Part shown: piece by piece, positions 10,001 to 31,081 of the stretch
Layout of the letters: each line of letters begins with the position of its first letter
How positions within the stretch are numbered: the stretch's first letter is position 1
Virus record (IMG/VR): IMGVR_UViG_3300032330_000367
Location: 1 to 31,171 of that record
DNA: 31,171 bases
Direction: 5' to 3' (one strand)
Source: a virus
Lineage: Duplodnaviria; Caudoviricetes
The notes under the pieces: generated by a model
The model's input: the letters and a program-made list of their open reading frames with translations, nothing else
The model's database searches: none
What the model was told of the DNA's origin: nothing
Made by a program: the position numbers and the translations under genes

Positions 10001-10574
10001 CGCCTACGACGCTTACGCTATGGGCGACTACCAAAAGATGCAAGAGAAGTTGGCCCCTGCCGCTATCCGTAATTTGTTAGTTGCTAATCGTATGGCTGAT
10101 GAAGGTATGAAGACCGGTCGTGGTTCTGAGTTGGTCGGCAAAGATGATGTGAAGACTGGCGAATTGATTGGTCAAGCAATTGGTTTCCGCCCTGACATTC
10201 TTGCGGCTACACAAGGACCAAGCTTTAAATTAGCGGGTATCGAGCAACGCATCCTTAACCAACGTGGGTTGTTGCTGAACAAGTTGGACTTCCAACTGCG
10301 TCAAGACACTGACAAAGGTGATGAGCGGTTTGAAAAAATCTTGGAAGACGAAGTTCCTAAGTTCAACATCAAGTATCCATCGTACGCTTTAGACAGCGAC
10401 GCAATCTACAACTCATTGGCAAAGAAAGCCGAGCAACGATTGGGTGCTCGTGCGGGTGTAATTGCAACTGAGAAAAACATTCCTCTGATTGAGGAAGCTA
10501 CCGATACGATGGAACGCCGACTTGATCGCCGAGCAGATGAAATGAAAGCTCGACGCGAAAAAAACCCCCGGTGA
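4020..10574 (+). CDS. Very large (2184 aa) internal virion / polyvalent-type protein with a zincin-like HEXXH motif
   Basis: Uninterrupted 6.5-kb ORF with VLHELLHAAT followed later by PHEFLAYG. It has two GRP (AT-hook-like) motifs and hydrophobic helices near the C-terminus. It is the last gene of the + block. Confidence 0.65.
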   Translation: MPIYEYQGKHYDIATDDPAAAKAKILGHLGTQETPAPSPAPLAPKPKQAAQSDDFDFGAPMGTGSEEIMAQPTTPKVPKFKSVLEGREPEYDEEALIKASRRKYVEQGIKEAERATAVGKQRLAIQQAGRDRLRKEAEAENYGILDYAADTGIDLAKGAVGLGENYVGLLDITSGGAAGKVLGRMGYDPERTTEWLNGFQSITRKNARQNVKEAEGFVDTLGALLVNPTELLGSIAESLPGTVASGAVGGKFVRFLAGKATAEASALGLTGKEAQDFISGKVKEQAYKIAAVAGGTEGAQTAGSVAEKGRQKDKDWDQYVAPAIAAGLGTAAISALSGKVAQKLGIGDIETSIAARSAGVKGVGQSEGTYFTKLFKEMGKEGLLEELPQGVQEQIFTNLATGRPWDEGIGKAAAQSIVTGAGMAGGHVTGAAALQKASSTLNNALFGLSKEEQQQQQEELKQTNEAPPPPPPATNEAPPAPPSPAAQAGQARADRIEKVTQVLVQQGIPAENAGRIAERRVDAELKGEAKAAAIKVPEGRVEQLTQDLIASGVDPQQAVIQAQKQAQEEAEADELAKTETGGAANVAGPISKPAGESTSLVGQSDTEPSTGRIAGAESDGMVSTRPDVAGATTGETGKPLTLEERLQEADERRSKAIAMAKNNLDTAEATKSEYGGLKEAFGAHRQNVIDTLSEQGETDRRVVDAALDAYDKEVEARLAKEEAPAAIEETPIETKGAELGTETTEAQQTTQERQAAPTTGAVSKGKRGRPPVQQRHVVVKNSEGKFEHVTDGEVTATYANNKQATAAVNLAKAKDANNTANIAKYQAELDKALASTGRGRPAKAATETKAGTEKLDKDTREELDALESALETYNSTTDDKKAGDAALYISDAAVDPTVPKAVRERAQQMLEDEIDPKDIPKKLRSSEGKVAKADTGFSNLTNGSQAIAHIIKTGNLFQRFVAERIRNFVVGVKFVVVEKGDPMPPQLRGARGLFVYTPGSKERTIYVRGASFGDMQGVNVITVLHELLHAATASRIEAGLLKGFRNASLQKFMREMEGLMKRTQEAYEEGVLFGDLPADVQEMIEGTTDLDPRTGKVTIGVFADPHEFLAYGMSSPEFQKFLMGVQGKRGTGFSGFVDSIRDLFGIKQGDATAFSDLVDITDKMLGTRLTATETKGGALQQKGKFTPPEFDEQADIRAKRSALELERDARKAKQNVANSREGDMATAVEAMQKERDPSKVRQILANAWSWMDYKQREAMVRLPTFDFLAKWAAEKGINALTETNLYLERMLGMSQQFLAGAEQVVGMLDRGFKEDKNLSRKAFEDFVYATTIAEIDPSDPNAVERSKTLDEDYRALGTVGQRMYKDLRNYYEGIIELYSDLLDDQIQNAQGLTQSDKNNLMAMLRKTFEAKTRIKPYFPLVRRGDFWLAIGSGADRRFYTFESRIDRNNKAAELAAHKGDDVEDMLFRQEFVQGNDLGSLRTASKDSSQMLKQTFDAIDKMEMGEDSAAAKESLKDAVYQIYLNTMPEQTFRKQFTHRKNRMGFSTDVRQNVATTAAKQATQLARLKYAPLLRNSVSAARDSIREQEELSPFVQEAEKRVNLALSGGNGSLGEAVAGAANKASFFWYLSGASSALIQPSSIFISGLPVLAGNYNNASGAGLELAKMVTLVNQYSLMRTNSDGSTSISAPSIANNKSLPADERQAVSEMVSRGVSQSTYASMVWGYKQTPTESMYFRLDKGFGNIPVAYGKGKRMASLLVGALMHNTERLSREAVYLAAYRLGKKQGLTYADAVQKAVDSTNEALGNYDITNKPRFMQQGIGKIAFQFKMYPLQMTLLMLTNLKKMMPFLNKEGKKEAATKFFGMMGTSALLGGVANMALFSPIMGLIGWAWSKMRDDEDWPEELKDLDFQTWFREVFLPEKLGDTMIGGVPVSELIDRGPLNALTGYDIASRIGLNDLWGRDSKETKTARDSAIAYMLDHFAGPTASLGLSLADAYDAYAMGDYQKMQEKLAPAAIRNLLVANRMADEGMKTGRGSELVGKDDVKTGELIGQAIGFRPDILAATQGPSFKLAGIEQRILNQRGLLLNKLDFQLRQDTDKGDERFEKILEDEVPKFNIKYPSYALDSDAIYNSLAKKAEQRLGARAGVIATEKNIPLIEEATDTMERRLDRRADEMKARREKNPR

Positions 10575-15389: not shown

Positions 15390-16773
15390 CATCTTCTGAA
15401 GAAATTTCTTGCTTGTACAAGTCAATCACTTTTTGATGGTTGTCAATGTTGTTTTGAAGCATCGAGTACATCTTGGCTTCAATCGGACTGCCCTTAATAT
15501 GCACGATGGTCATGTTGTTGACTTGTCCGGGTCGGTCGATACGTGCGTTGGCTTGCAAGTACGTTTCAACACTTGTGCATGGAGCATACCAAATGATTGT
15601 GTTGGCGGCAGTTAGAGTTAACCCGTGGGATGCCGCCTTCGGTTGGATGATTAAAACTTTTGGTTCCGGTTGCTCTTGGAAGTGCTTGACAATGTCGGAG
15701 CGTTTGTTTACAGGCACGGACCCATTGATGACGTCGCATGTGATGTTGTGTTTCTGCAAGTGCTTCTCAAGTAGCTCAATGGTGTGCGTGAACGGAACAA
15801 ACACAAGCACCTTGTGGCTCGACTCTTCAACAACTTCCTGAACCACGTTAAGCCGACTGCTCACGTCGAACTCAACCACTTCGCCCGTATCCGTATACAC
15901 CGCACCTCCAGCTATTTGTAGAAGTTTGTTGATTTGTACGGCGGCATTGACTGCTGATACTTCTTCGCCAGCGGCCTCAATCAGCATCTGCTTCTTTAGT
16001 ATGTTGTAGAACTTTAACTGCTGCGGTGTTAATGGTGCGTCTCGTTCAACAAATGTAATTGGCGGCAAGTCGAGGCAGTCGGCTTTCTCAAATCGGATGG
16101 CGGGTTGCAGTGCTTTGTGTACGATGAGCTGTGACGTTGGCTTGGGTATCCACTTGTACATGGTCAGCTTCATCATCACTGAGTCGCGGAACTGACCGAA
16201 GAAAGGTGACACACCCTTGGGGTTCACAAGTTTTGCCAATCCGTAAGCATCCACAGGCGATTGCGCGGCAGGCGTACCCGTAAGCATCCACAAGCCCTTT
16301 ATAACTTTTGTTAGATCGCGTAGGTCTTTCCAACGCTCGGTCTGCGCGTTCTTATAGGCTGATGCCTCGTCCACTACGATGAGGTCGAAGCCCCCCTCCA
16401 TGATTTCTTTCTTCACGATGCCAACACCATCAAAGTTGATGATGACGAACTCGGCACCCGCGTTCACAATTTCCTTGCGCTTTCTTGCAGAGCCGTAAGC
16501 AACTACTACGGTCCGGTGAATTGCAAACTTAAACAAATCGTTCTGCCATGCCGACTTCATGATCGACAAAGGGCAGATCACTAACACACGCTTTACTAAT
16601 CCAATGGTCATGAGGTAGTCGACAGCCCAAATGACTGACGCTGTTTTACCTGTGCCTTGCTCGTTGAAGCAGAACGCTTTGGGGTGACCCGTCAAGAACT
16701 CTGCTGTTGTCTTCTGATGATCGAACGGCGTGAACCCCGGGGGACGAGGCCACGTATACTCTGATAGGTTCAT
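15370..16773 (-). CDS. SNF2-like superfamily-2 helicase
   Basis: Motifs EQGTGKT, DEAS, LTGTP, SHGLTL and QANARIDRPGQ. Confidence 0.9.
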   Translation of the reverse strand: MNLSEYTWPRPPGFTPFDHQKTTAEFLTGHPKAFCFNEQGTGKTASVIWAVDYLMTIGLVKRVLVICPLSIMKSAWQNDLFKFAIHRTVVVAYGSARKRKEIVNAGAEFVIINFDGVGIVKKEIMEGGFDLIVVDEASAYKNAQTERWKDLRDLTKVIKGLWMLTGTPAAQSPVDAYGLAKLVNPKGVSPFFGQFRDSVMMKLTMYKWIPKPTSQLIVHKALQPAIRFEKADCLDLPPITFVERDAPLTPQQLKFYNILKKQMLIEAAGEEVSAVNAAVQINKLLQIAGGAVYTDTGEVVEFDVSSRLNVVQEVVEESSHKVLVFVPFTHTIELLEKHLQKHNITCDVINGSVPVNKRSDIVKHFQEQPEPKVLIIQPKAASHGLTLTAANTIIWYAPCTSVETYLQANARIDRPGQVNNMTIVHIKGSPIEAKMYSMLQNNIDNHQKVIDLYKQEISSEDVDIVKS

Positions 16774-19281: not shown

Positions 19282-21099
19282 TTAACAATCACCATAACTC
19301 GGTCCATATCCTGCTTCGCAGTTAAGCGGCAACTCCATGCCCCAATCAGGGCGTGTGCGCATGCACATCTCAACGTACTCGGTAGCGGTTTCAACGTGCT
19401 CTGTCGGCACAACACAAGCGATCGCGTCATGCACAGTCATCACAACTCTGTATTTCTTGGCAACCATAAGCATCTGATCGCCAATGATTATGCGAGCCAA
19501 GGCTTGGCACATGTTCTCAATCACCTTACCGCCATAGATGCGAGTCGGTATAACTGCCTTGCCCTTCTTGGTGTCGTACACCAGCTCAGCCTTGCCTTCC
19601 TCGTTCTCTACTAAGCGCAGGTTGGGGTAGCGCAGGTACAGACCATTGGGGAGCAGTACGCCATCATTGCCTTGTATCTTCAAGATACCGCCTCGGCCTA
19701 ATGTTGTTTGCTGATTCTGTAGTATCGCTTTGAGCGCCGTGGCAGCGGATTTCCATAACTCGGTAATCTTCGGGTACGTGGTGCGGTACGTGTCGATAAT
19801 GCGTTTTGCTTCCTCAAGTTCAATCGCCACATTGAAGTTCTTAAGTTGGGCTTGAAACTTTGCCGCACCCATTCCATAGCCACACCCAAGGATGGTGGTC
19901 TTACCAACGAACCTTTCGTCCTTTGTGATGTCATTAACGCTCTTGCCATAAATAGCAGATGCCATGATTTTGTATACGTCCTCGCCACGATCAAATGCCT
20001 CCACTAAGTCATTCTGTTCCGCAAGCCATGCGAGCGTACGTGCTTCAATTTGTGATGAATCTGAATCAATGATCGAATACCCGTCCGGGGCAAGTATTGC
20101 CTTCTTCAGCGGTGAGTTGCGTTGTAAGTTTTGCAAGTTGAGTTTGTCATCCCCGCCCCAACGCCCAGTGTGTGCGGCGTAGTAGCGTAGCGGTACAGGT
20201 AGCGCACCGCGCTCAGCGATGCCCATGAACCGAGCTGTCCTTGTCTCTTCAATCGTAGACTTAGTACCGAGTCGTGCGCCGACTAAAGCTTGAACTTGTG
20301 GGTTTGGATGCTCAAGCAACTCTTTGAACGCTTCGTCTGTCTTAGAGAACGCATAGGTCTGCTTGCCTGTCGCGGGGCTTGTCTTCATCGGAGGCGTAAT
20401 GCCGTACGCAATCAATATCTCCGCAAACTTATTGTTGCTCATCAAGTCGTCTTTGGCAAAGTTCTCGAGCAGTTCTTCCTTGCGGATTCTTTCAGTCAGC
20501 AAATGGGTTTTAAGAAGGACTTGATCTAAACGCAACACAGGCTCGGTGAACATGCGCACAGTCAGATCAATGAGTCGCAACTCAGTCGGCGGGAAGTTTG
20601 TAGCCATTGCATTAAACAACGCATAGGTAAGGGCAACGTCGTTCTTGCAGTACTCGCCATACCTTTGTAGCTGTTCGGGGCTGAAGTCCTGACGCCGCAG
20701 ACCTAGCGCATTTTCAACCTCGGTCCCCTTCTCGCCAAGATCGTAATGATTTGCCAGCACCTTCAAGCTACCGCCTACTTGAGTGCCATGCAAAGCCCTG
20801 CCCATGGACAAAGTATCAAGCCAACCTTTGGGGCTGAGTCCGAAGACCCATTGCAAAATTGCGCCGTCGAACGGAGCGTTGTGGGCTAGCGCAAGGGAAT
20901 TCCCCCAATCGAATCGGGTAAGGAACTGGTGCATGGATTCAGCATCGCCGCTGAACCATTCGGGTTCACCATCGTTGATCTGTACGGCTACGCCGATAGT
21001 CTCAAACTGCGGGCTACGAACGTACTCCTCAGTGGTAACTTTTGTTAGGGAGAACTCACGGGAATAGTAAGTCTCAAAGTCGATCGTGAGAATGTTCAT
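19282..21099 (-). CDS. polA: Phage family-A DNA polymerase with 3'-5' exonuclease and no 5'-3' exonuclease
   Basis: Exo I DFET, HNAPFD, TGRW..NLQN, motif A DSSQIEAR, motif B RFVGKTTILGCGYG and motif C VHD. Confidence 0.93.
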   Translation of the reverse strand: MNILTIDFETYYSREFSLTKVTTEEYVRSPQFETIGVAVQINDGEPEWFSGDAESMHQFLTRFDWGNSLALAHNAPFDGAILQWVFGLSPKGWLDTLSMGRALHGTQVGGSLKVLANHYDLGEKGTEVENALGLRRQDFSPEQLQRYGEYCKNDVALTYALFNAMATNFPPTELRLIDLTVRMFTEPVLRLDQVLLKTHLLTERIRKEELLENFAKDDLMSNNKFAEILIAYGITPPMKTSPATGKQTYAFSKTDEAFKELLEHPNPQVQALVGARLGTKSTIEETRTARFMGIAERGALPVPLRYYAAHTGRWGGDDKLNLQNLQRNSPLKKAILAPDGYSIIDSDSSQIEARTLAWLAEQNDLVEAFDRGEDVYKIMASAIYGKSVNDITKDERFVGKTTILGCGYGMGAAKFQAQLKNFNVAIELEEAKRIIDTYRTTYPKITELWKSAATALKAILQNQQTTLGRGGILKIQGNDGVLLPNGLYLRYPNLRLVENEEGKAELVYDTKKGKAVIPTRIYGGKVIENMCQALARIIIGDQMLMVAKKYRVVMTVHDAIACVVPTEHVETATEYVEMCMRTRPDWGMELPLNCEAGYGPSYGDC

Positions 21100-21587
21100 T
21101 ATGGAATCATCCCTGTTTTTCTTGCGTAATCTTCGGGCGACAAACCTAGCTTTTGCGCTATTTTTAGTTGTGATGAATTAAGCGTGAATGTTGTAGGTTT
21201 CGGATTAGCAAACTGCTTCTCAAGTAGCCTTAGCGATTCGTTTGTAATTTGGTTTATGGTGAGTGGTTTGCCGTAGTACTCTTTCTTACTAAAGTCTTCG
21301 TACTTGGGCTCTTCCAACAACTTACTCATGATGCCCTGATCGAACCTTGCACGCATCATTTCTTTAAAGCCCTCAATCAAAGCGGTCTGCTCGGCTTTGG
21401 TGAACAAGTGCCAATCGTCCCACTTAACCTTGTCTCCACGTACTATGTCACGCATAAGGTCAGCGAACATACCGAACTTAGGCTCGTCGTCGGAGTGGTA
21501 GCTAGTCACAAAGTCCTCGGGGTTGTTCTGCATGCGCTCAAGCAAAATCTTCACGCCTTGACTAAATTCTTTTTCAATTGGTTTCAT
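21099..21587 (-). CDS. Hypothetical protein, RM..xPEDF paralog 1
   Basis: GVKILLERMQNNPEDF; overlapping junctions with neighbours. Confidence 0.75.
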   Translation of the reverse strand: MKPIEKEFSQGVKILLERMQNNPEDFVTSYHSDDEPKFGMFADLMRDIVRGDKVKWDDWHLFTKAEQTALIEGFKEMMRARFDQGIMSKLLEEPKYEDFSKKEYYGKPLTINQITNESLRLLEKQFANPKPTTFTLNSSQLKIAQKLGLSPEDYARKTGMIP

Positions 21588-22018
21588 GGTTGTATCCCGA
21601 TCGCGCCTTGTAATGGGTTTTTTCCGTATATTGATCGTGGGTCGGTGTATCCGGAAAGCATGCCGCTTTGTAATGCTTGCTGACTGTTCACCATTGATTG
21701 GGCTAGGTTTTTGTAATAAGCCCTAGAAACCACCCCATCCTCTATGTCTTCTCGAGTAGTTGGGTTGATTGTCTGTTGCATGATCTGAGCAAGTAACTTT
21801 TTACGATCGCGTTGCATCTGACATTCTTTCCAGTACTTGCGTATCATCTTGCGTTCTGTGCTTGTGTACGGGTTACGTTCATTGTCGGCAATCTCAACGA
21901 GCTTCTTCCAACCTGTGCCGTAGTCAAAGTCCTCGGGGCGTTCCTTCATGCGTGTGAGCATTAGCTGTACTTCCGTAGAGCAACGCTTGACTAAAAGTTT
22001 TTCGATCATTTGAACCAC
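21584..22018 (-). CDS. Hypothetical protein, RM..xPEDF paralog 2
   Basis: EVQLMLTRMKERPEDF. Confidence 0.75.
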   Translation of the reverse strand: MVQMIEKLLVKRCSTEVQLMLTRMKERPEDFDYGTGWKKLVEIADNERNPYTSTERKMIRKYWKECQMQRDRKKLLAQIMQQTINPTTREDIEDGVVSRAYYKNLAQSMVNSQQALQSGMLSGYTDPRSIYGKNPLQGAIGIQP

Positions 22019-22371
22019 CCTGTTCCTGTTGCTACTGCTTTAACGTTCTTTATGTCGTCTTCGGTGAGTGTTTGGTTACCAATCGACAAAGTGTTTGCCA
22101 TTTGGACACCGCCATTGCTTATCTGATACCTACCACTTAGAGTACCCTCCATCTCTTCTTTGAGTAGTTCTTTCACTACCAAGGTGTCGAACTCTTTACG
22201 TCGTACTTCTTTGAGCGCCTCATGCAATGCGCCCTTCTCGGGCTCGGTCAGCACCTCACGAAAGTTTGCGGCAAACATAAACCGCCACTTGGGTGCATCC
22301 CCAAAAAATTCTTCGGGGTTTGATTCCATACGTGCTACCAAGGTACGCACTCCGCTACACATTTCACTCAT
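22006..22371 (-). CDS. Hypothetical protein, RM..xPEEF paralog 3
   Basis: GVRTLVARMESNPEEF. Confidence 0.75.
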   Translation of the reverse strand: MSEMCSGVRTLVARMESNPEEFFGDAPKWRFMFAANFREVLTEPEKGALHEALKEVRRKEFDTLVVKELLKEEMEGTLSGRYQISNGGVQMANTLSIGNQTLTEDDIKNVKAVATGTGWFK

Positions 22372-22907: not shown

Positions 22908-22935
22908 ATGATAGCATGGGATTTGACAAAGTCAA
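22908..22935 (-). promoter_or_regulatory. sigma70-type promoter TTGACT-N16-TATCAT
   Basis: Both hexamers match 5/6. It lies between a terminator and VRR-NUC and shares TTGACWTTGTCAAA with the promoter at 15362-15389. Confidence 0.75.
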
Positions 22936-22947
22936 TAGTACAGACGT

Positions 22948-22970
22948 AAAAAAGCCACCCGAAGGTGGCT
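22948..22970 (-). terminator. Intrinsic terminator with a UUCG tetraloop
   Basis: The minus strand reads AGCCACC-TTCG-GGTGGCT-TTTTT. Confidence 0.9.
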
Positions 22971-22997
22971 AGTGGTTTCCCTAACTTCTAACAAATG

Positions 22998-23516
22998 TTA
23001 GGACAGGCTGTTGATCTCGCGGTTCAAATACCACAACGCTTTCTCAAGGTCTTGCTTGCGGTTGCCTTTGTGGTCGGCACGAGTGATGTACTTCACCACG
23101 TTGCCAAGGTTGTACCCGAGCTTCTTCGCTTCAATGAAGTCGATTGTTTCGATTCCACCTACTTTGTAATGAGCAGGGTGATTCACGGGATCAGGTTTTG
23201 GTTCAAACATCTCGATCTGTTTGTCGGATGAAGTCGTGCTAATGGTTCTCCACACTTCGACCGCGCCTTGCAATACTTGCTTTTGTGTTTTGAGTGCTTT
23301 AGCCAGCTTAGCTTTATTGGTCATGTCCTTTTTCTTTTGCATGCCGCTTTTCTGTTTCATCTTCCACACAATTGAGTACACGTACTGAAGCCCAGTACCA
23401 ACTGCTTTGGCTACTTCAGGAGGCGTAGCCTTGGGGTTCTCTGCAATGTACTTACGGATTTTGTCAGCCTTGGACATAGGCTTGCTTGCGGTTAAAGTTG
23501 TTGCTAATTCAATCAT
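22998..23516 (-). CDS. HTH plus DUF3310 (SaV / T7 gp1.7-like) fusion protein
   Basis: N-terminal ATPPEVAKAVGTGLQYVYSI HTH; C-terminal DPVNHPAHY..GGIETIDFI...GNVVKYITRA..K...QDLEKALWYL. Confidence 0.85.
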   Translation of the reverse strand: MIELATTLTASKPMSKADKIRKYIAENPKATPPEVAKAVGTGLQYVYSIVWKMKQKSGMQKKKDMTNKAKLAKALKTQKQVLQGAVEVWRTISTTSSDKQIEMFEPKPDPVNHPAHYKVGGIETIDFIEAKKLGYNLGNVVKYITRADHKGNRKQDLEKALWYLNREINSLS

Positions 23517-23719
23517 GGTGTTTCCTTGGTTTGGTTGTTAACGTACTCGGTAAGAATTTCTCGCATCTTGGCTTGCTTTGTATACGCAAAGTTTGTGTTG
23601 AAGTAATCCATCACATCCTTTGGTAGACGCAAGCTCGTACAGAAAAGTGCGGGTTTCTTACCAAGCCCCCGCCCTTTCTTTTTTTGTTCCGGTTTCAAGT
23701 ATTCAATCCCTGTTGTCAT
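23513..23719 (-). CDS. Ribbon-helix-helix protein (BrnA-like)
   Basis: GRG.GKKP...TSLRLPKDVMDYF...QAKMREILTEYV. Confidence 0.7.
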   Translation of the reverse strand: MTTGIEYLKPEQKKKGRGLGKKPALFCTSLRLPKDVMDYFNTNFAYTKQAKMREILTEYVNNQTKETP

Positions 23720-23879
23720 TCAGTATCCTTTCATAATATTTTTTAGGGAACGGCGCTCTCTTTTCCAGCTCGGCACGTAGCCACTCGGAACTGCCGAGCT
23801 GTTTGAATATTAACCATTGCCGATCACTCATCCGCACGTATCTAACTTTTAGTGGCTCAGGCGGTTTCGGTCTTGGCAT
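23703..23879 (-). CDS. Small putative ribbon-helix-helix protein (58 aa, not in ORF track)
   Basis: Hand-translated MPRPKPPEPLKVRYVRMSDRQWLIFKQLGSSEWLRAELEKR...; exactly fills the gap between its neighbours. Confidence 0.65.
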   Translation of the reverse strand: MPRPKPPEPLKVRYVRMSDRQWLIFKQLGSSEWLRAELEKRAPFPKKYYERILNDNRD

Positions 23880-24057
23880 TTTTTAAGTTCCTCCTCGTTA
23901 CTCTGTTAGCCCAACATGCTGAGCATGACCATCGGGTCGGTGACAACTCGATGCCCCCCTCGGGGGGTCGCATCTCTTCGCATTTGGTACACAGCTTGTA
24001 CTTGTGTATTGGTTGCTTACTACCAATCTCAAGTTGATGCCGTGTGAACCCATTCAT
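23857..24057 (-). CDS. Small zinc-finger protein
   Basis: CTKC...CSAC; ATGA overlap. Confidence 0.7.
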   Translation of the reverse strand: MNGFTRHQLEIGSKQPIHKYKLCTKCEEMRPPEGGIELSPTRWSCSACWANRVTRRNLKNAKTETA

Positions 24058-24335
24058 TTGTCAACCCCTTTCATCATCAACAACATCGTCAGCGCATCTG
24101 TCAATGACTCGCCCTCTTTGATTACGTACATCTCAGTAATCCAATCGGGTCTGTGGCTTTTTGTGGTTGGTTGGTACGTGCGCACTGATAACACTCGCCC
24201 ATTGATTGCGTGGTTGATACCAATCTGCACACTGTTTTCGGACATGGCTTCAGCTTCGACTACTGCGTTTGTTCGCAACTTAAGGCCGTCACTGTGCAAC
24301 CAATTTCTAATCCAACTTTTAATGCTCATCTTCAA
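24054..24335 (-). CDS. Hypothetical protein
   Basis: 93 aa with SD AAGGAG. Confidence 0.7.
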   Translation of the reverse strand: MKMSIKSWIRNWLHSDGLKLRTNAVVEAEAMSENSVQIGINHAINGRVLSVRTYQPTTKSHRPDWITEMYVIKEGESLTDALTMLLMMKGVDK

Positions 24336-24513
24336 TCACTCCTTCTAATATGAAACTAATCCTGTCGAGCATGTCGGCTCGATCTCCAAACTGTCTCGGG
24401 TTGCCTAGCACTCGGTCGATCTCAACCAACGCAAGGTAATACTCTTCACCTCGTAACGCATGCTTGAGCTTGGCTTCATCTTGTGGATACGTGAACTCAA
24501 GCACGGCTTTCAT
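24319..24513 (-). CDS. Hypothetical protein (MKAVLEF..P.D type)
   Basis: Start re-assigned to the ATG at 24513 after AAGGGG. Confidence 0.7.
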   Translation of the reverse strand: MKAVLEFTYPQDEAKLKHALRGEEYYLALVEIDRVLGNPRQFGDRADMLDRISFILEGVIEDEH

Positions 24514-24682
24514 ACGCTGCCCCTTTGGTGATGCGTATAAGCAAGCGAGCCTTACGCCATGTCCTTCGCACATCGGTAGCGGCGGCGGGAATCCACTTGA
24601 ACTTGGGGTGATTGTGGTCACGCAAGGGGATAGCCTTCGAACTGTATTTCAACTCTGACATTTCATTCTCCTTCTCTAACAT
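24497..24682 (-). CDS. Small hypothetical protein (PAAATDVRRTWRK)
   Basis: The start is either the ATG inside the palindrome (24682) or the ATG at 24661 after AAGGAG. Confidence 0.7.
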   Translation of the reverse strand: MLEKENEMSELKYSSKAIPLRDHNHPKFKWIPAAATDVRRTWRKARLLIRITKGAAYESRA

Positions 24683-24685
24683 CTG

Positions 24686-25540
24686 TTAGGTTTCATCGAC
24701 CAACAACACAAAGATTTCACTCGTCACCTTGCAACCTATGTCGGTGAGATACTGCTCATCCTCTACCAACTTCAGCATGCCTACCTTCATACGCATATCT
24801 TGAGGGAGCGTATTATCATCGTACATGTCCACCTTGTCACCTACTTTAACTAGGTACTTACCCAAGTCTTTGACTACTAGCGCAGTCTTATTGTTGCCAA
24901 ACTGTTCCTGCACTTTCTCGATAGTCTTCATCTCGGTGTCGAGTACCTCTAGCTTTTCGATGCTATTGCTTATGGTATTGCGCGTAGTACTAGATGCTTC
25001 CTTCTCGACGAACTCCAAGAACATTGCATAGCCCTTGCTCTCAGCCCATCTCAGCATCTCACCTTGCACCATACCTTTGTGGTTGTTGCGCTCACGCTCT
25101 TTGTTCCAGCTTGCTCGAGTCACTACACGTTCTGCCGCATCCTTAGCCTTCTGTATACGCTCATTGGGATTCATCTTGCCGAACATCTTCTTCGCCATGA
25201 GTACGGCTTTTTCTGCATCTTGCGTACGATAAGAGTCGCTACGTTGTCTGCCCTTACCAATACGATCGTTGGCAATAGCAATCACTTGCCCACGGCTACC
25301 CATGTAGCTCGTACCAATCGTACCCAAAGTCTCACCATCTAGCTTGACTACGAAGTCAGACACCTTGTAGTTGTCACCCATACTGTATGACCTACCCATA
25401 GCCACGAATGTCCAAAGCGGATTGAGCGTAGCCAGTCGGCTAATCACAGGCTCGATGATGGGGTGCACTCCAACGACTTTACTGCGGTGCTTCTCCAACT
25501 CTTCGTTAAACACCACGTTGCTCAGTTCTAATGTATTCAT
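24686..25540 (-). CDS. Hypothetical protein (284 aa)
   Basis: Long ORF with SD AGGAG, flanked on both sides by palindrome copies. Confidence 0.85.
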   Translation of the reverse strand: MNTLELSNVVFNEELEKHRSKVVGVHPIIEPVISRLATLNPLWTFVAMGRSYSMGDNYKVSDFVVKLDGETLGTIGTSYMGSRGQVIAIANDRIGKGRQRSDSYRTQDAEKAVLMAKKMFGKMNPNERIQKAKDAAERVVTRASWNKERERNNHKGMVQGEMLRWAESKGYAMFLEFVEKEASSTTRNTISNSIEKLEVLDTEMKTIEKVQEQFGNNKTALVVKDLGKYLVKVGDKVDMYDDNTLPQDMRMKVGMLKLVEDEQYLTDIGCKVTSEIFVLLVDET

Positions 25541-25565
25541 ACTCAGTTACTCCTAACAAATGTTA

Positions 25566-26414
25566 TTACCACTCAAACTTACCCAAGATTTCATCAACCT
25601 TGGACTTCAAATTCTCACGCACCACGGGACTGTCTTTGACTTCATCAATGTCAGCACCAAGCATGGCTAGCTCTACTTGCCTACGTGCATCCTCCAACTT
25701 GGGGTCGTTAGTGATGTTCAGCTTTGTCAACAACTCACACAACTCCAATGGGTTGGTAATCAATGAGTCGTGATAACGCTTCTTCCCGTCTCCGTTATCT
25801 TCCAACTTCTTGGACATACCCAAGAGAACTTCGTGCAGGCGTTCCCATGGTGTACGCATCGCTTCGGCCAGCTTCTCAGAATACTGTGACTCGTATGCCG
25901 ATCTCATTTCCTCCAAGTCATGCGCGGGAATGTCTAAGCGAAAGTCACCAGCCTCGGGCAACGGCTTCACGCTACGACGAAAGCTGAACTTCTTCCTAAC
26001 TTCTGTTAGGTCGGGGTAATCCTCTGCCTTGTAAAGCGCACCCAAGTTGACCTTGGCTTCTTCCACCAATGTCTCGTACTCATCAAAGAAGTTATCGCAC
26101 AACATGTTGAACGTACGCTCGTATCCATTCATGGTCTGCTTGTAGTCCATGAACAACTTGGTCGGCAACATACGCTCACCTTTGTCTGCCCATGGCAGGG
26201 TGTGCTGATTGTTATAGAGTCGAACCCTTGCGGCGAACTTCTCAATGTCTGCTCGTAGGCTTGTACCCGCAAACAGATTCTTTTTCGTTTGGGATGCGTC
26301 TTTATGTGCAGACGCATTGGCGTTGACCTGACTCGTTATTTCACGATCAATCTTGGCGGCAGGCCAAACGCTGATGTTCAACTCGACTAATACTGCTGAT
26401 GCGCTAATACTCAT
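25566..26414 (-). CDS. DUF3150-like helical protein
   Basis: LVELNISVW.A.K.D N-terminus, YP...EV..KF.F motif and LTKLNITND.L. It co-occurs with AAA and VWA genes. The family assignment is from memory of the pattern. Confidence 0.55.
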   Translation of the reverse strand: MSISASAVLVELNISVWPAAKIDREITSQVNANASAHKDASQTKKNLFAGTSLRADIEKFAARVRLYNNQHTLPWADKGERMLPTKLFMDYKQTMNGYERTFNMLCDNFFDEYETLVEEAKVNLGALYKAEDYPDLTEVRKKFSFRRSVKPLPEAGDFRLDIPAHDLEEMRSAYESQYSEKLAEAMRTPWERLHEVLLGMSKKLEDNGDGKKRYHDSLITNPLELCELLTKLNITNDPKLEDARRQVELAMLGADIDEVKDSPVVRENLKSKVDEILGKFEW

Positions 26415-26415
26415 T

Positions 26416-26667
26416 TCATTTCTCCTGTGGTTTTCCGGCTAACTTAGCCATTTGATAATGTGAATCGCTGATGATGCTCATGTTGAACGCTGAATCGTTC
26501 GGATACACGTGGTAGGTATAAGTCTCAGTCATACCAAACTCCGCACGTTTGGCGTCAGTCCAATACTTTGCTTCGTATACCTCCGCACCCTCTAAGCACT
26601 CGACCAAAAGCATCGCCTTCTCTTTGGGCATAACTAACTTTTTGTAACCAACATCTACTACTACCAT
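26416..26667 (-). CDS. Hypothetical protein (83 aa)
   Basis: Start re-assigned to MVVVDVG after SD AGGAGG. Confidence 0.75.
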   Translation of the reverse strand: MVVVDVGYKKLVMPKEKAMLLVECLEGAEVYEAKYWTDAKRAEFGMTETYTYHVYPNDSAFNMSIISDSHYQMAKLAGKPQEK

Positions 26668-26701
26668 CTGATACCTCCTAACATTTGTTATAAACAACCA
26701 T

Positions 26702-27949
26702 TTAATCCTTGACGTGAATCGTTTTGCCGTTCTCTGCAACACAATCGTTTCCTCCTACGATCGCCCACAGTACAGGCGCAGTCCACTCGCTACCCCAGTC
26801 GCTACCGACATACCCATCGGTTAGTACGATGACGCACTCAGGTACGATGCGTTTGTCTTTCAGATACTCTGATACACATGAGGGTGATGTACCACCACCG
26901 CCTCTAGGTTTAGTAGAGTTGATAATGTCGCCCACCATGTTCTCGGTGTACTCCTCGTGTCCGGCTACCTGACTGTCCCAATAGATCAAGTCCACTTGGC
27001 TCGGCTTAACTTCTTCTGCGATACCCCTAACTTCTGTTAGGAAGCCCGACAGCTCTTCTTGGCCTACTGAACCTGACGTATCCACAGCCACAACCAAGTG
27101 ACCTACCTTCTCACCAATCAAGCTAGGCATGTAAGTACCGGCAGACAAGAATCTGCGGTTAACCCTACGCCACGATGACGTATCCTTTGCGCTACATGTT
27201 GACTTCACAAACTCACGCAACATCTCACGCCAATCAACTTTTGGTTCGAGCAAGTCAAGCAAGTCACGATCAAGCCCACCTGCACCAGTTCCCGCGATCT
27301 TCTGATGCGCCATTACCCCTTGACGAATAGCCTGATCTATCTCACGCTCAAGCTCTTTCTTCTCCGCCTCGGTCATTTCCTTCGCACCATCCCAGTCGTG
27401 TTCGTCAAAGCCTTCTTGCGTACCACTACCACTAGACCCACCGGACCCATTGCCTTCGCCTTCGTTGCTATTTTTGTCGCCTCTACTCTTCTGCTCATCC
27501 TTGAGTATGTCGAACACTTGCTTGGCGTTCATACCACGGAATCGCTCATCCACTAGACCCATGGCCTTACCTTTGAGTTCACCATCTGCCCACTTAGGCA
27601 TGGCAATGGTTCGCTCGCTTGGGTCTAAGTCTTTGAGCTTGAGGTTAATCACGTAGTCGCAAGCGGAATTGGCTAACCGGTGATTCTCGTCATGCAACTT
27701 ACGCCATGTGGTCAGGTGTCGAAACGCCTTGTGCAGATTCTCATGGAGTACCACGAAATTCAACTCGGGCTCTTTCAACTCAGCCACAAACTTGCGACCA
27801 TACTTCTCGTCACGACCATTGGTGCATGCCGTAGGGATATCATTCACTACGCTCGTACGACCAACCATCAAGATACCAGACCAAAGGGCAAACCTCGGGT
27901 CACGCATCAATGTGATCTTCGCCTTCTGAACTTTTCTTTCTTCTAACAT
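26702..27949 (-). CDS. Metallopeptidase-VWA protein (DUF2201-like)
   Basis: PTACTNG, HENLH (HEXXH), AN.ACDYVIN, MIDAS DTSGS, GGGGT and LTDG. Confidence 0.88.
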   Translation of the reverse strand: MLEERKVQKAKITLMRDPRFALWSGILMVGRTSVVNDIPTACTNGRDEKYGRKFVAELKEPELNFVVLHENLHKAFRHLTTWRKLHDENHRLANSACDYVINLKLKDLDPSERTIAMPKWADGELKGKAMGLVDERFRGMNAKQVFDILKDEQKSRGDKNSNEGEGNGSGGSSGSGTQEGFDEHDWDGAKEMTEAEKKELEREIDQAIRQGVMAHQKIAGTGAGGLDRDLLDLLEPKVDWREMLREFVKSTCSAKDTSSWRRVNRRFLSAGTYMPSLIGEKVGHLVVAVDTSGSVGQEELSGFLTEVRGIAEEVKPSQVDLIYWDSQVAGHEEYTENMVGDIINSTKPRGGGGTSPSCVSEYLKDKRIVPECVIVLTDGYVGSDWGSEWTAPVLWAIVGGNDCVAENGKTIHVKD

Positions 27950-27952
27950 TTG

Positions 27953-28168
27953 TTACCTTTCATTTAAAACATTTACTAACTTTTGACAAACTTCTCTGTC
28001 GGCATGCTCGAACAAAGTCTTGCACTCCTTTGTGTCGTATACACAATACCCAAGTATCTGTATCTGCAAAGTACCGCTTTCGTTGGGGTGTCGTTCAATC
28101 ACCCACCTAGCGATGTACCTACCCCTTCGCATTAGGTCTTCGGGGGTTGTTCCATTCAGTCCTAACAT
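27953..28168 (-). CDS. Hypothetical protein (71 aa)
   Basis: Both its ATG and its TAA are supplied by palindrome copies. Confidence 0.65.
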   Translation of the reverse strand: MLGLNGTTPEDLMRRGRYIARWVIERHPNESGTLQIQILGYCVYDTKECKTLFEHADREVCQKLVNVLNER

Positions 28169-28180
28169 TTGTTAGGTATC

Positions 28181-29245
28181 TCACAGTAGGTCTTGGTTCT
28201 TAACAACCCAGTCCTTGAACGCACTGCTTGAGAAAGCGATACTCTGCTTGGTTGGGTTCTTGGCAATGTTGATAGCGAACACGGCTTGCCACTCGGCATC
28301 GAATCGAGACAAGTACTCCATGAATGGGGCAATGGTTTCTTTCGTAATGCGAGCGATAGCACCGAACACCACAATGGCGCATGCACCCGGACTTGTAGGT
28401 ACGACAGTAGTCTTTGGCTCTTTGACAGTCGCCTCCCATGTAGGCAATTGATCTGAGAACTCAATGTAGGCTTGCATGTCACGCGCACCCGATTCACCAA
28501 TCGCACCAGTCAAAGCGGCAATCACCGAATCAGGGTCGTTGTCTTTGCGAGTCCGCACAATGTTCGATGCTGTCTCCAATGAGCGTGGTGATACGAACGC
28601 ATGCTGAGACTTGCGTGGGTTGTAGATGTATGGGTTGTCACCTTGTGCCGCATCGGTATAGCTTGCCAACACATGAGGGAAACGATTCACCCATGCAATC
28701 ACCTCGGGCTCGAGTCCCTTAGCAATCGCCCATTCAATCCATTGCTCGGCATCGGGCTTGGCAATCGTCACCGGAACCAGTCGGTTACGGCTATGTGCTT
28801 TGAGGTTGTCGCCAACTCCATCGGTCGTAAGATTACCAGTCAAAAACACTATGGTATTGCTCGACAATGGAATGTCACCCAAGCGTGGGTTTGCCTTCTC
28901 TAGCATGGGGTGAAGCATATTCTTCACAGGGTCTGCACCTTTGGTGAACTCGTCAAGCATGATGACCAATGGTTTGTTCTCATGGATACGGAAGCGGGCA
29001 TTGGGGTAATACCTTGTGGTCTTGGTATCGTGGTCGATCACAGGCATTGCGATGTCGCCTAAGTCCATATTGGGTACGTCGATATACGCATACTCAAAGC
29101 CCAGCTCACCTGCGATATTCTCTAGTAGGGAAGACTTACCGATGCCGGGCTCGCCTTGCAACAGGAAGCGGGTCGTTGGGTTTGTGCGAATGAGGTTAGC
29201 CGCTTGCTTGAGGGTAATTGATTTACCGAAATTAATTTCTGCCAT
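28181..29245 (-). CDS. MoxR/dynein-related AAA+ ATPase
   Basis: Walker A GEPGIGKS, Walker B IMLDE, sensor TGN, Arg finger RNR and SPRS. Confidence 0.9.
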   Translation of the reverse strand: MAEINFGKSITLKQAANLIRTNPTTRFLLQGEPGIGKSSLLENIAGELGFEYAYIDVPNMDLGDIAMPVIDHDTKTTRYYPNARFRIHENKPLVIMLDEFTKGADPVKNMLHPMLEKANPRLGDIPLSSNTIVFLTGNLTTDGVGDNLKAHSRNRLVPVTIAKPDAEQWIEWAIAKGLEPEVIAWVNRFPHVLASYTDAAQGDNPYIYNPRKSQHAFVSPRSLETASNIVRTRKDNDPDSVIAALTGAIGESGARDMQAYIEFSDQLPTWEATVKEPKTTVVPTSPGACAIVVFGAIARITKETIAPFMEYLSRFDAEWQAVFAINIAKNPTKQSIAFSSSAFKDWVVKNQDLL

Positions 29246-29341
29246 GATGTTCTTTCTAATACGCTGATAGTTCTAACATTTGTTAGGGATGCGGGTTGGT
29301 GCATCCCATTGCTACGGACACAATTATCCATAGCAACCTTT

Positions 29342-29370
29342 ATTATACCACAAAGTTATGGATATGTCAA
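29342..29370 (-). promoter_or_regulatory. Perfect sigma70 promoter TTGACA-N17-TATAAT
   Basis: Exact consensus hexamers and spacing, about 95 bp upstream of the AAA ATPase start. Confidence 0.92.
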
Positions 29371-29544
29371 TTATTTCGTGGGGCTCTCCTCTACAATTTT
29401 CTTTAGCCTACGCAAGTCCTCATCAACAATTGCAATTGCGGTGTCGAATCCTTTCCTACGCCCGAGGAAGTATCCTGTGTGATACACAATCCACATCAAC
29501 GCCAACAACTCCGCAGTCCAAAATAAAATCTCAAGATCAGTCAT
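29371..29544 (-). CDS. Small single-pass membrane protein (57 aa, not in ORF track)
   Basis: Hand-translated MTDLEILFWTAELLALMWIVYHTGYFLGRRKG...; ATGA overlap with the upstream gene. Confidence 0.65.
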   Translation of the reverse strand: MTDLEILFWTAELLALMWIVYHTGYFLGRRKGFDTAIAIVDEDLRRLKKIVEESPTK

Positions 29545-29702
29545 GCTTCACCTCTCAGTTTATAAAGTTTGATTTTCTTAAGCGTTGGGTACTTGGACAC
29601 GAATCGTTCCTTCGCCACCGCCTTGCTCTTCGCTTCGAGACTCTCGGCAATCCACATGCCGAACCGCCCACTCCACCCTGTCACATAGTACTTAGCTAAC
29701 AT
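29541..29702 (-). CDS. Small basic protein (53 aa, not in ORF track)
   Basis: Hand-translated MLAKYYVTGWSGRFGMWIAESLEAKSKAVAKERF...; the ATG lies inside a palindrome copy. Confidence 0.65.
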   Translation of the reverse strand: MLAKYYVTGWSGRFGMWIAESLEAKSKAVAKERFVSKYPTLKKIKLYKLRGEA

Positions 29703-29705
29703 TTG

Positions 29706-29900
29706 TTAGTTCCCCGTTAATAATTTGTAGTACGCAATTACCTCGTGCTCGTATCCCTGTGCTAGAAGCACTAGGTTGTTCTCGGGGTCAGGCACGCGCA
29801 GTCTTTCCTCGTGGTTACGCATGTATCTGTAATCCCGCTCGGGCACTCGAATCACCGCCCCAGTCCAAGGCACTCGGCACAAATACCATTGCTCACGCAT
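29706..29900 (-). CDS. Hypothetical protein
   Basis: 64 aa; the stop lies inside a palindrome copy. Confidence 0.7.
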   Translation of the reverse strand: MREQWYLCRVPWTGAVIRVPERDYRYMRNHEERLRVPDPENNLVLLAQGYEHEVIAYYKLLTGN

Positions 29901-30375
29901 CTTTACCCTCCTTGTGGTACTTGTCGTACGCCCATAGTCGTTTGCCTAACCAATAGACTTCGTTCTCGACAAACTCCCATGTCTTGTACTTGGCGCACTC
30001 GTGGTACTTGGGCGGGTCTTGGTCTGACCCCACCCTAATCAGCATCTCAACAATCGCAGGGCAAAAGTCACTCGAATGGGCGGTGTCAAAACCAAAGTAC
30101 CACCATCCATCCTTGTCCGCTTGTGAGTAAGTCAGCCCTCCATGCACATCGTCTTGGATTGCATCCATCTCATCGTTGCCTCCGTTGTAGTCCTCACCCC
30201 AGAATGTGTGTCCCTTGGGTATGCCCACATAACCACAAAGCGTACCTGTAATCGGGTTGCGCTTAATCCTGCACTTGTACCCACTCGGCTCTTGTATCCA
30301 CTCCGCATTGTCGGGCTCGTCTTCCCATGGTCTGACTGGGTAGAACAGTTTCATCTTCAGACTTGCTTCTAACAT
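29893..30375 (-). CDS. Phage protein with CGYV...HGGLT...GFDxAH motif
   Basis: Motif typical of a widespread uncharacterised phage family. The ATG lies inside a palindrome copy. Confidence 0.8.
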   Translation of the reverse strand: MLEASLKMKLFYPVRPWEDEPDNAEWIQEPSGYKCRIKRNPITGTLCGYVGIPKGHTFWGEDYNGGNDEMDAIQDDVHGGLTYSQADKDGWWYFGFDTAHSSDFCPAIVEMLIRVGSDQDPPKYHECAKYKTWEFVENEVYWLGKRLWAYDKYHKEGKDA

Positions 30376-30502
30376 TTGTTAGTTCCTTCCTAAAATTATT
30401 TCGTACCACTTGCCTTGCATCCAGTCGGCTAGCAAACCAACGGCTCAATCGTTGGGGCTCGTAGCCTTCACTCTCGTCTTGTAACAATCCCATCTTCAAC
30501 AT
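30263..30502 (-). CDS. Hypothetical protein (GLLQD...LSRWFAS..DAR)
   Basis: SD GGAGG upstream. The 3' part overlaps the next gene by 113 nt, so that tail is doubtful. Confidence 0.5.
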   Translation of the reverse strand: MLKMGLLQDESEGYEPQRLSRWFASRLDARQVVRNNFRKELTNVRSKSEDETVLPSQTMGRRARQCGVDTRAEWVQVQD

Positions 30503-30713
30503 GGTTCACCTCCAGTTTCATGTGTTTCTCAGTCAGGCTTGCCATTGCTTGCATAGCCCCATGGTCATCACTCTGCGCAACAATCCACCAAGCCTTTTCA
30601 TTTCCACGCTTCTTGGCAATGCCAACATAGTCGTACCACCTACGCTCAACCACAATGAAAAAGCCCGACTTCCCACGCAAGAGCATCCACTTCTTCTTGC
30701 GCCTCGGCATCAT
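30468..30713 (-). CDS. Hypothetical protein
   Basis: 81 aa with SD GGAGG and an ATGA overlap. Confidence 0.7.
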   Translation of the reverse strand: MMPRRKKKWMLLRGKSGFFIVVERRWYDYVGIAKKRGNEKAWWIVAQSDDHGAMQAMASLTEKHMKLEVNHVEDGIVTRRE

Positions 30714-30799
30714 GGCCTCCAGTAAAACAAATCAAGGGCTACGACAATCAAGCCGATCAGGAACACGGCTCGCTCGAACTTCTCAAACTTAGTCATCAT
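30710..30799 (-). CDS. 29-aa membrane peptide (…DLFYWRP)
   Basis: Start re-assigned to MMTKFEK after AGGAGG. Single hydrophobic helix. Confidence 0.65.
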   Translation of the reverse strand: MMTKFEKFERAVFLIGLIVVALDLFYWRP

Positions 30800-30911
30800 G
30801 CTCTTCCTCCTGCACATGTATGCGCACGATGCGTACGCCTTCAAAGATTTCAACCACTTCGTAGTCGATCTCGGCTTTGTCCAACAACTCATACATTTCC
30901 TTCGGTGTCAT
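30789..30911 (-). CDS. 40-aa acidic protein (not in ORF track)
   Basis: Hand-translated MTPKEMYELLDKAEIDYEVVEIFEGVRIVRIHVQEEEHDD; SD GGAG and ATGA overlap. Confidence 0.6.
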   Translation of the reverse strand: MTPKEMYELLDKAEIDYEVVEIFEGVRIVRIHVQEEEHDD

Positions 30912-31081
30912 TTGATCTCCCGCTTGCGTTGTATGGGTAACTCTTTGGTCAGCTCGTGCATCACGGGCTTGGACTCGGACACCTTCAATGTCTGCATCAC
31001 CTCACCTAACATTTGTAAGTAAGCAGTCTGCGTGACTGGCTTGGACAACTTGTCCACCTTCACATACTTCGGTCTCGTCAT
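30908..31081 (-). CDS. 57-aa protein (not in ORF track) containing a degenerate palindrome copy
   Basis: Hand-translated MTRPKYVKVDKLSKPVTQTAYLQMLGEV...; AAGGGG upstream. Confidence 0.55.
   Translation of the reverse strand: MTRPKYVKVDKLSKPVTQTAYLQMLGEVMQTLKVSESKPVMHELTKELPIQRKREIK

Follow-up and report, generated by a model that had tools for sequence, protein, structure and literature searches.

A genome-specific palindrome array in the early operon of a tailed-phage group and its candidate binding protein

The IMG/VR record IMGVR_UViG_3300032330_000367 is a 31-kb tailed-phage fragment, analysed here over its whole length of 31,171 nucleotides (the window), with virion genes on the plus strand and both replication genes and a series of early genes on the minus strand. 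Its early region carries repeated copies of the palindrome CTAACA-NN-TGTTAG. Comparison with related phages indicates that these palindromes are very probably sites at which a protein binds double-stranded DNA, and that the binder is probably the product of c10, a fast-evolving gene of about 170 amino acids (aa) that protein clustering around the arrays placed at the head of the early region of relatives. Repression is the effect on the early genes that we somewhat favour for c10, and, taking the reading as a whole, we lean towards a genome-specific array over the early operon to which c10 binds as a roadblock repressor. The array, its confinement, the fixed spacer in each genome, the upkeep of sites within coding sequence and the co-variation with c10 are what can be read from the sequences themselves. 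The system is likely a dispersed operator array, with a specificity that would be set mainly by half-site spacing, tracking a protein of no known family. The candidate binder was singled out by co-variation over 86 distinct proteins, together with natural swaps and a mosaic genome.

The array and its co-variation with c10

At one mismatch or fewer, 12 copies of the palindrome were found in the window, against 0.05 expected, and none of 100 shuffled sequences reached 12. The ten copies listed in the original prediction are all real and correctly placed, while those at 25996 and 27027 had been overlooked. All 12 lie between 22988 and 31019, and no copy at this threshold was present in the remaining 23 kb; confinement to about 8 kb, as first proposed, is borne out, with two candidates at two mismatches (16301 and 21035) elsewhere.

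The relatives used were 80 loci, the best of 295 from IMG/VR that have a related ATPase; their genes, called by a custom open reading frame (ORF) script, contain noise. When searched with the window's own motif, these loci split into some with many copies and others with none. A de novo motif search showed that the seemingly empty loci have identical arms with another spacer. Arrays of 4-23 copies were present in 79 of the 80 loci, the exception being L071, which has practically none; the motif is neither evenly spread in the window nor absent from relatives. Among the 79 loci, 41 have a spacer of 1 base pair (bp), 32 of 2 bp and three of 3 bp, two have TGACA arms and one has G-flanked arms, and 0-bp spacers were found in later scans of further genomes. 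Within a genome the type is nearly uniform, 1012 of 1059 exact cores (96%, L071 omitted) being of the genome's own type. Confinement also recurred: each of 10 long records had nearly all of its sites within 7-14 kb. For five 2-bp records (53-66 kb), the 10-19 sites were all located within 7-13 kb and a reversed control pattern gave none; in five 0/1-bp genomes the sites were likewise confined, except for one outlier each in G020 and G030.

The type of the genome is also visible inside conserved genes. One codon stretch of the ATPase gene contains a 1-bp site in 39 of 41 one-bp loci versus 6 of 40 others. With the peptide held fixed at this position, the figures were 28 of 31 versus 1 of 24 distinct contexts; the stricter pattern removes some of the six exceptions, and the contexts are related to each other. 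These comparisons indicate that sites inside conserved genes are gained and lost by synonymous change according to the genome's type.

The spacer follows c10 more closely than it follows any other gene compared. The c10 tree has two deep clades, A with a 2-bp spacer in 23 of 24 rows and B with a 1-bp spacer in 24 of 26. Three spacer changes are needed on this tree versus eight on that of the ATPase (n = 50; shuffled minimum 13), and c10 needs fewer than 12 of 12 other families, by a small margin of one to four changes. In the comparison with the Cro-like gene the numbers were four versus seven (n = 28, after omission of two genomes whose locus lacks c10), and the Cro-like tree was hardly better than shuffled labels, 35 of 300 shuffles being as low. 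The locus L105 has a 1-bp spacer and L143 a 2-bp spacer. These two loci are 93-98% identical in the ATPase, DUF2201, 282-aa, ribbon-helix-helix (RHH) and helix-turn-helix (HTH)-DUF3310 proteins, whereas their c10 proteins belong to different clades (36% identity over 67 aa). Their spacers differ at each site that could be aligned, aligned intergenic sites showing a one-base indel in the centre.

For three distant c10 subfamilies, the spacer was predicted in advance. The scan gave 50 distinct new loci, of which 36 were scored; the other 14 had fewer than three cores in the available DNA or a truncated protein. Thirty of 33 clade-B loci had the 1-bp spacer (the others, two 0 bp and one 2 bp), and two of three clade-A loci had the 2-bp spacer. 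The clade-A miss, L156, is a mosaic in which the sites flanking c10 are of the 2-bp type that matches its clade, the distal sites are mixed and one site is a hybrid. In L071 and L098, an unrelated first gene goes together with 0-1 exact sites and an array that is all but lost.

Some arrays (L156:1979-12148 and L132-L134) are mosaics of two site types with hybrid sites, and these genomes are probably in transition. Genes identified by eye as HNH-like endonucleases are inserted after the ATPase or 282-aa gene (L133:3485-4168, L133:7482-8105 and L094:4424-5038), and one 1-bp site lies within such an insert in L133. In the phages L078 and L138, tandem repeats with a 19-bp period lie downstream of an alternative first gene (L078:1038-1621 and L138:6532-7079).

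Features of the window and placement of the sites

The features of the window that bear on the array are the following, sites having no strand.

31006..31019, site with one mismatch inside the 57-aa ORF 30908-31081; same variant in 12 relative loci
30369..30382, perfect site containing a possible ATG of a 160-aa gene
29696..29709, perfect site giving one gene's stop and the next gene's ATG
29342..29370, minus strand, predicted sigma70 early promoter (consensus 12/12, extended -10), conserved ahead of the ATPase in relatives
29273..29286, perfect site in the leader, about +49 to +62 from the predicted transcription start
28181..29245, minus strand, AAA ATPase (N4 gp24-like), core early gene; internal site only in 1-bp-spacer relatives
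28162..28175, perfect site directly past the ATPase stop
27943..27956, site with one mismatch giving a small gene's stop and the DUF2201 gene's ATG
27027..27040, site with one mismatch within the DUF2201/VWA gene
26678..26691, intergenic site with one mismatch, continuing into the Shine-Dalgarno (SD) sequence
25996..26009, site with one mismatch within the 282-aa gene; same codon in 25 of 32 two-bp-spacer loci
25553..25566, site with one mismatch at the stop of the 282-aa gene, continuing into the SD sequence
24676..24689, perfect site giving the stop of a 284-aa gene
22988..23001, last site, perfect, at the stop of the HTH-DUF3310 gene right before the terminator; centre about -93 from the next promoter
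22953..22970, minus strand, predicted intrinsic terminator ending the early operon
22908..22935, minus strand, predicted sigma70 promoter of the replication operon, with no full site directly downstream
21035..21048, possible weak site with two mismatches in the DNA polymerase gene; may be chance
16301..16314, possible weak site with two mismatches in the SNF2 helicase gene; may be chance

Most copies in the window lie at gene boundaries, although three of the 12 (25996, 27027 and 31006) are intragenic, where one in ten had been reported. Those at 25996 and 27027 are deep in coding sequence and each reads L-T-E-V-R. The reported overlaps with stops, starts and SD sequences were confirmed, with an alternative ATG further downstream for the starts at 24682, 28168 and 30375, and the last copy does close the final early gene just ahead of the predicted terminator. 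Both orientations of the centre occur, as had been noted, but with a bias: on the coding strand, seven of 12 centres read AAAT and two ATTT.

Among 742 distinct sites in the phage group, 526 are intergenic or over a start or stop (71%, versus 17% for random places), a further 39 are close to a gene end and 177 (24%) well inside genes, and the median spacing is 637 bp. The interval from -64 to +35 of the 162 distinct strong promoters examined holds no centre of a major-type site. A site comes after almost all strong early promoters, mostly at +35 to +85, while the promoter of c10 itself and the replication promoter have one upstream instead, at -64 to -94. The first site, upstream of c10's promoter, is outside any early transcript. 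Helical phasing of the sites relative to promoters was not significant (best p about 0.11).

Two further elements were seen near these promoters. The two main early promoters (in the window, for example, 29342-29370) often have a TAAC word in the spacer immediately upstream of the extended -10, whatever the spacer type of the genome; this word is missing from the promoter of c10, and in 3-bp genomes it completes a cognate site over the -10 box. Between the c10 terminator and the first early promoter, beyond the window's end, lies a non-coding element of about 500 bp made of convergent half-site repeats with an A/T-rich centre (L010:7200-7600, L071:6600-6950, L098:5280-5700 and L069:8640-9050), with 5-16 half-sites per 500 bp in 26 of 27 loci versus about one on average. 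Since this element is kept without c10, and also in TGACA-type genomes, its binder is probably another protein. The element resembles an iteron origin, similar to that of P4, and the window's 950-aa DUF927 primase-helicase would be a candidate binder.

Elsewhere in the window, the ATPase and DUF2201/VWA pair (26702-29245) is about 24% identical to N4-like gp24 ATPases and 77-96% conserved across the phage group. A 2184-aa virion protein (4020-10574) has a C-terminal match to a DarB-like antirestriction family, a long Pro/Glu-rich repetitive ORF (2-1282) is truncated by the contig start, and three neighbouring small genes (21099-22371) have a common 28-bp stretch and a similar N-terminal peptide, suggesting that they are paralogues.

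The candidate binder, its proposed action and the alternatives

In relatives, c10 is divergent from the terminase genes, with sites on both sides and a terminator after it. The family has 349 representatives at 50% identity. Its model (pLDDT, a per-residue confidence score, 89.8) comprises two helical domains joined by a loose linker, the C-terminal one being a helical hairpin, and conserved basic columns are R21, K/R74, R103 and K/R105. No longer fused form was seen among 7999 candidates, which is weak evidence. Sites adjoining c10 often have a non-cognate spacer or mismatches (L001:5020, L004:5000, L013:5521, L042:4931-5975, L072:146 and L077:413), as expected for a weak autoregulatory site or a recent c10 swap.

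Two affiliations of c10 were tried. One, which we keep as a lead, started from the fold of the integrase core-binding domain; four of 146 members match PF13495 weakly, and hhalign gave no match to the IntI1 N-terminus. The PF13495 matches are below threshold and span 26-28 residues, and in two of five records the only matches fall on the c10 helix pair. The other, which we reject, was homology to the phiC31 repressor c, for which hhalign gave a probability of 0.1% and the PF25746 profile, a weak Atlas neighbour of c10 (0.81 and 0.79, below 0.9), matched nothing in five records.

We propose that c10 would bind DNA by its N-terminal helical domain and pair through the C-terminal hairpin, the geometry of the dimer setting the spacer length. 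Bound c10 would stall the host RNA polymerase first 35-85 bp past the early promoters and then at intervals of about 640 bp along the early operon; the layout of the sites suggests that the polymerase is allowed to start and is then blocked repeatedly. The short unit of c10 and the replication promoter would stay largely open. The outcome would be early shut-off and, for any superinfecting phage with a matching spacer type, silencing; spacer types would then correspond to immunity groups. Genes of the integrase, resolvase and ParA types (PF00589, PF00239 and PF01656) were not detected in any of 13 complete genomes, with positive controls, and GTDB genomes gave no ATPase relative and no prophage-like match. 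Since these genes and a prophage-like match are lacking, the more likely purpose would be timed early shut-off plus same-type exclusion, or a non-integrated carrier state.

Several observations weigh against this reading. The window does not contain c10: judged from relatives, it would end 2-4 kb short of the gene, whose presence in this phage is taken from them. The protein sequence has no match in Pfam, PHROG or PDB and matches no known DNA-binding family. Foldseek searches of PDB and BFVD with its first model gave nothing at E<=0.001, and its best VIA Z of 6.1, with no clear fold match, is within the common helical range, so that the fold searches establish neither a known nor a new fold. 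The clade rule has exceptions in L045 (clade A, 1 bp), L058 and L221 (clade B, 2 bp) and L057 (3 bp), and the sisters L222 (1 bp) and L227 (0 bp) differ in spacer. The margin over other gene families is small, many loci are close kin, which makes the counts overstate independence, and independent pairs on well-supported branches number only four (sign test, median p 0.125). Since c10 lies within the array, linkage accounts for part of the co-variation. L078 and L138 have five and three sites, respectively, and no detectable c10. Cores with a 3-bp spacer lie across the -10 box in the 3-bp genomes and in part of the 2-bp ones; avoidance of promoters is therefore not absolute, and direct occlusion may contribute. 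Finally, the 13 complete genomes appear to hold no known route to lysogeny, because integrase, resolvase and ParA-type genes are absent from all of them.

The main rival, which we consider unlikely, keeps c10 as the binder and gives it a structural role in genome entry rather than mainly repression: it would pace transcription-driven entry, compact or shield the first-entering 12 kb, or load another protein. The avoidance of promoter cores, the quarter of sites lying mid-gene at a fairly even spacing, the absence of lysogeny genes and the first site outside any early transcript all suit such a role, but the placement of a site shortly after nearly every strong early promoter and an array that stops exactly at the early terminator do not, and repeated switching of specificity would fit immunity better. 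That a host transcription factor binds the sites, with the spacer mirroring the host, appears improbable. It would agree with arms that are identical across most types and with the sites of L078 and L138, whereas spacer and arms follow a phage gene even in near-identical phages and in the mosaic genome, and the array is nearly gone where c10 has been replaced. The original prediction of sites for a dimeric protein on double-stranded DNA is supported, but among the regulators it named in the window, the RHH 23513, HTH-DUF3310 (22998) and Cro-like (13675) proteins do not track the site type. These three and RHH 23703 are plausible DNA-binding proteins, the Cro-like gene having a Pfam HTH match; even so, RHH 23513 and HTH-DUF3310 are 94% and 96% identical between a 1-bp and a 2-bp phage, both genes are kept in L098 with its array nearly lost, and the Cro-like tree behaves much like the shuffles. 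That any of the four regulators binds the sites seems very improbable to us.

Two further proposals of that prediction, recombination joints and RNA hairpins, fared worse and seem to us highly improbable. If the sites were joints for shuffling early-gene cassettes, their preference for intergenic positions, starts and stops would be expected, and the integron core consensus does fit 144 of 361 left arms and 68 of 361 right arms. The cited part of a study on Cluster O repeats also describes occasional deletions between sites (PMC4351075). Synteny breakpoints, however, do not coincide with the motif: pairwise comparisons showed a break at 337 of 1187 junctions that have a site (28%) versus 753 of 1823 siteless ones (41%), with a rho of -0.18 (p 0.34) at the family level. 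Nearly a quarter of the sites are deep in genes, mid-gene sites are made and erased by point changes, and no tyrosine or serine recombinase was found in the 13 complete genomes. Of the joints in contigs of four runs, none was site-to-site among the 15 of 75 that were listed, and contigs drop rare variants. Occasional homologous exchange at the sites may occur as a side effect. As to a messenger RNA hairpin, either hiding starts or serving as the target of an RNA-binding or antitermination protein, with c10 acting like lambda N, a 5-bp stem is possible, sites follow promoters and overlap starts, and c10 is a first gene followed by a terminator. Nevertheless, eight window sites fold at -0.6 to -7.4 kcal/mol, with a z beyond -1.9 in none of the eight. 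A/T-rich centres occur in both orientations with mirror-image mismatches, and changes that preserve G-U pairs are almost absent. Sites of the 1-bp type keep the innermost arm bases complementary in about 99% of 353 cases, though these could not pair in a hairpin, the genome G039 uses a 0-bp perfect palindrome, and one site lies upstream of c10's promoter.

Should repression hold, spacer length would be an unusual route to immunity groups, and a silent state may exist in abundant lake phages that look lytic. Having a candidate binder makes the question testable with one small synthetic gene and a reporter. A bolder version, which we put forward tentatively and regard as rather doubtful, is that a widespread freshwater phage family without integrase or partition genes silences its whole early operon by a new-fold repressor, that half-site distance (0, 1, 2 or 3 bp) defines the immunity groups, and that 15-20 sites over 12 kb, also inside genes, are rewritten in concert when the repressor gene is swapped. 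On that version, strictly lytic-looking phages would have a carrier state or superinfection immunity, and the family would provide a natural set of orthogonal roadblock repressors.

Comparison with known systems

A literature search, judged by titles and abstract openings, gave no paper on the motif or the phage group. The repressor c of phiC31 binds conserved inverted repeats of that phage and represses its lytic genes. We counted 11 copies of one palindrome in the 26 kb of phiC31 examined, a likeness to the array described here; unlike the present phages, phiC31 integrates, and c10 has no profile similarity to its repressor. Integron attC sites differ in that no integron integrase (no PF00589) accompanies the array, c10 does not match the IntI1 N-terminus, and the sites do not mark the ends of mobile gene units. 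The PeSL cassettes of T4-type phages, in the cited sections, are promoter-terminator motifs tied to gene shuffling at variable early-gene junctions (PMC2839356, PMC4122927). The present motif is likewise repeated at variable early-gene junctions, but its sites are not promoters and do not mark breakpoints.

The Cluster A stoperators, bound by repressors of the L5 gp71 type, offer a closer parallel. The cited parts of two studies describe at least 20 repressor sites off promoters, proposed to halt elongation, and a stoperator motif and repressor that diverge together and shape superinfection immunity (PMC9283540, PMC6550527). Here too, many sites were found off promoters and in short intergenic spaces. 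As described in those parts, however, stoperators are asymmetric, orientation-dependent 13-mers, whereas the present sites are dyads found in both orientations; the Cluster A repressor is a monomeric protein with an N-terminal HTH and a Stoperator domain, and for c10 the sequence searches gave no HTH match and the fold searches nothing clear; and Cluster A phages are temperate with int or parABS, against none of the 13 complete genomes here. In addition, specificity would vary here mainly by spacer length.

In Cluster O mycobacteriophages such as Corndog, 17-bp palindromic repeats (7-3-7) are proposed sites for a dimeric protein, and the cited part of the study names no binder (PMC4351075). 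Compared with what that part describes, the two systems have in common many dyads with invariant arms and an A/T-rich spacer, mostly off promoters, and the lack of an integrase or parAB; about a third of the Cluster O repeats are intragenic, as are part of the sites here (PMC4351075). Arms and length differ, and the Cluster O repeats, as described there, are genome-wide with one spacer length (PMC4351075), while the present array is confined to the early operon and has a spacer that varies among relatives and tracks one gene. Dispersed palindrome arrays of phages that lack lysogeny genes have been described before, without a binder or function, and the present array has a candidate binder. By analogy, the array would work like the Cluster A stoperators, and in form it stands nearest to the Cluster O palindromes.

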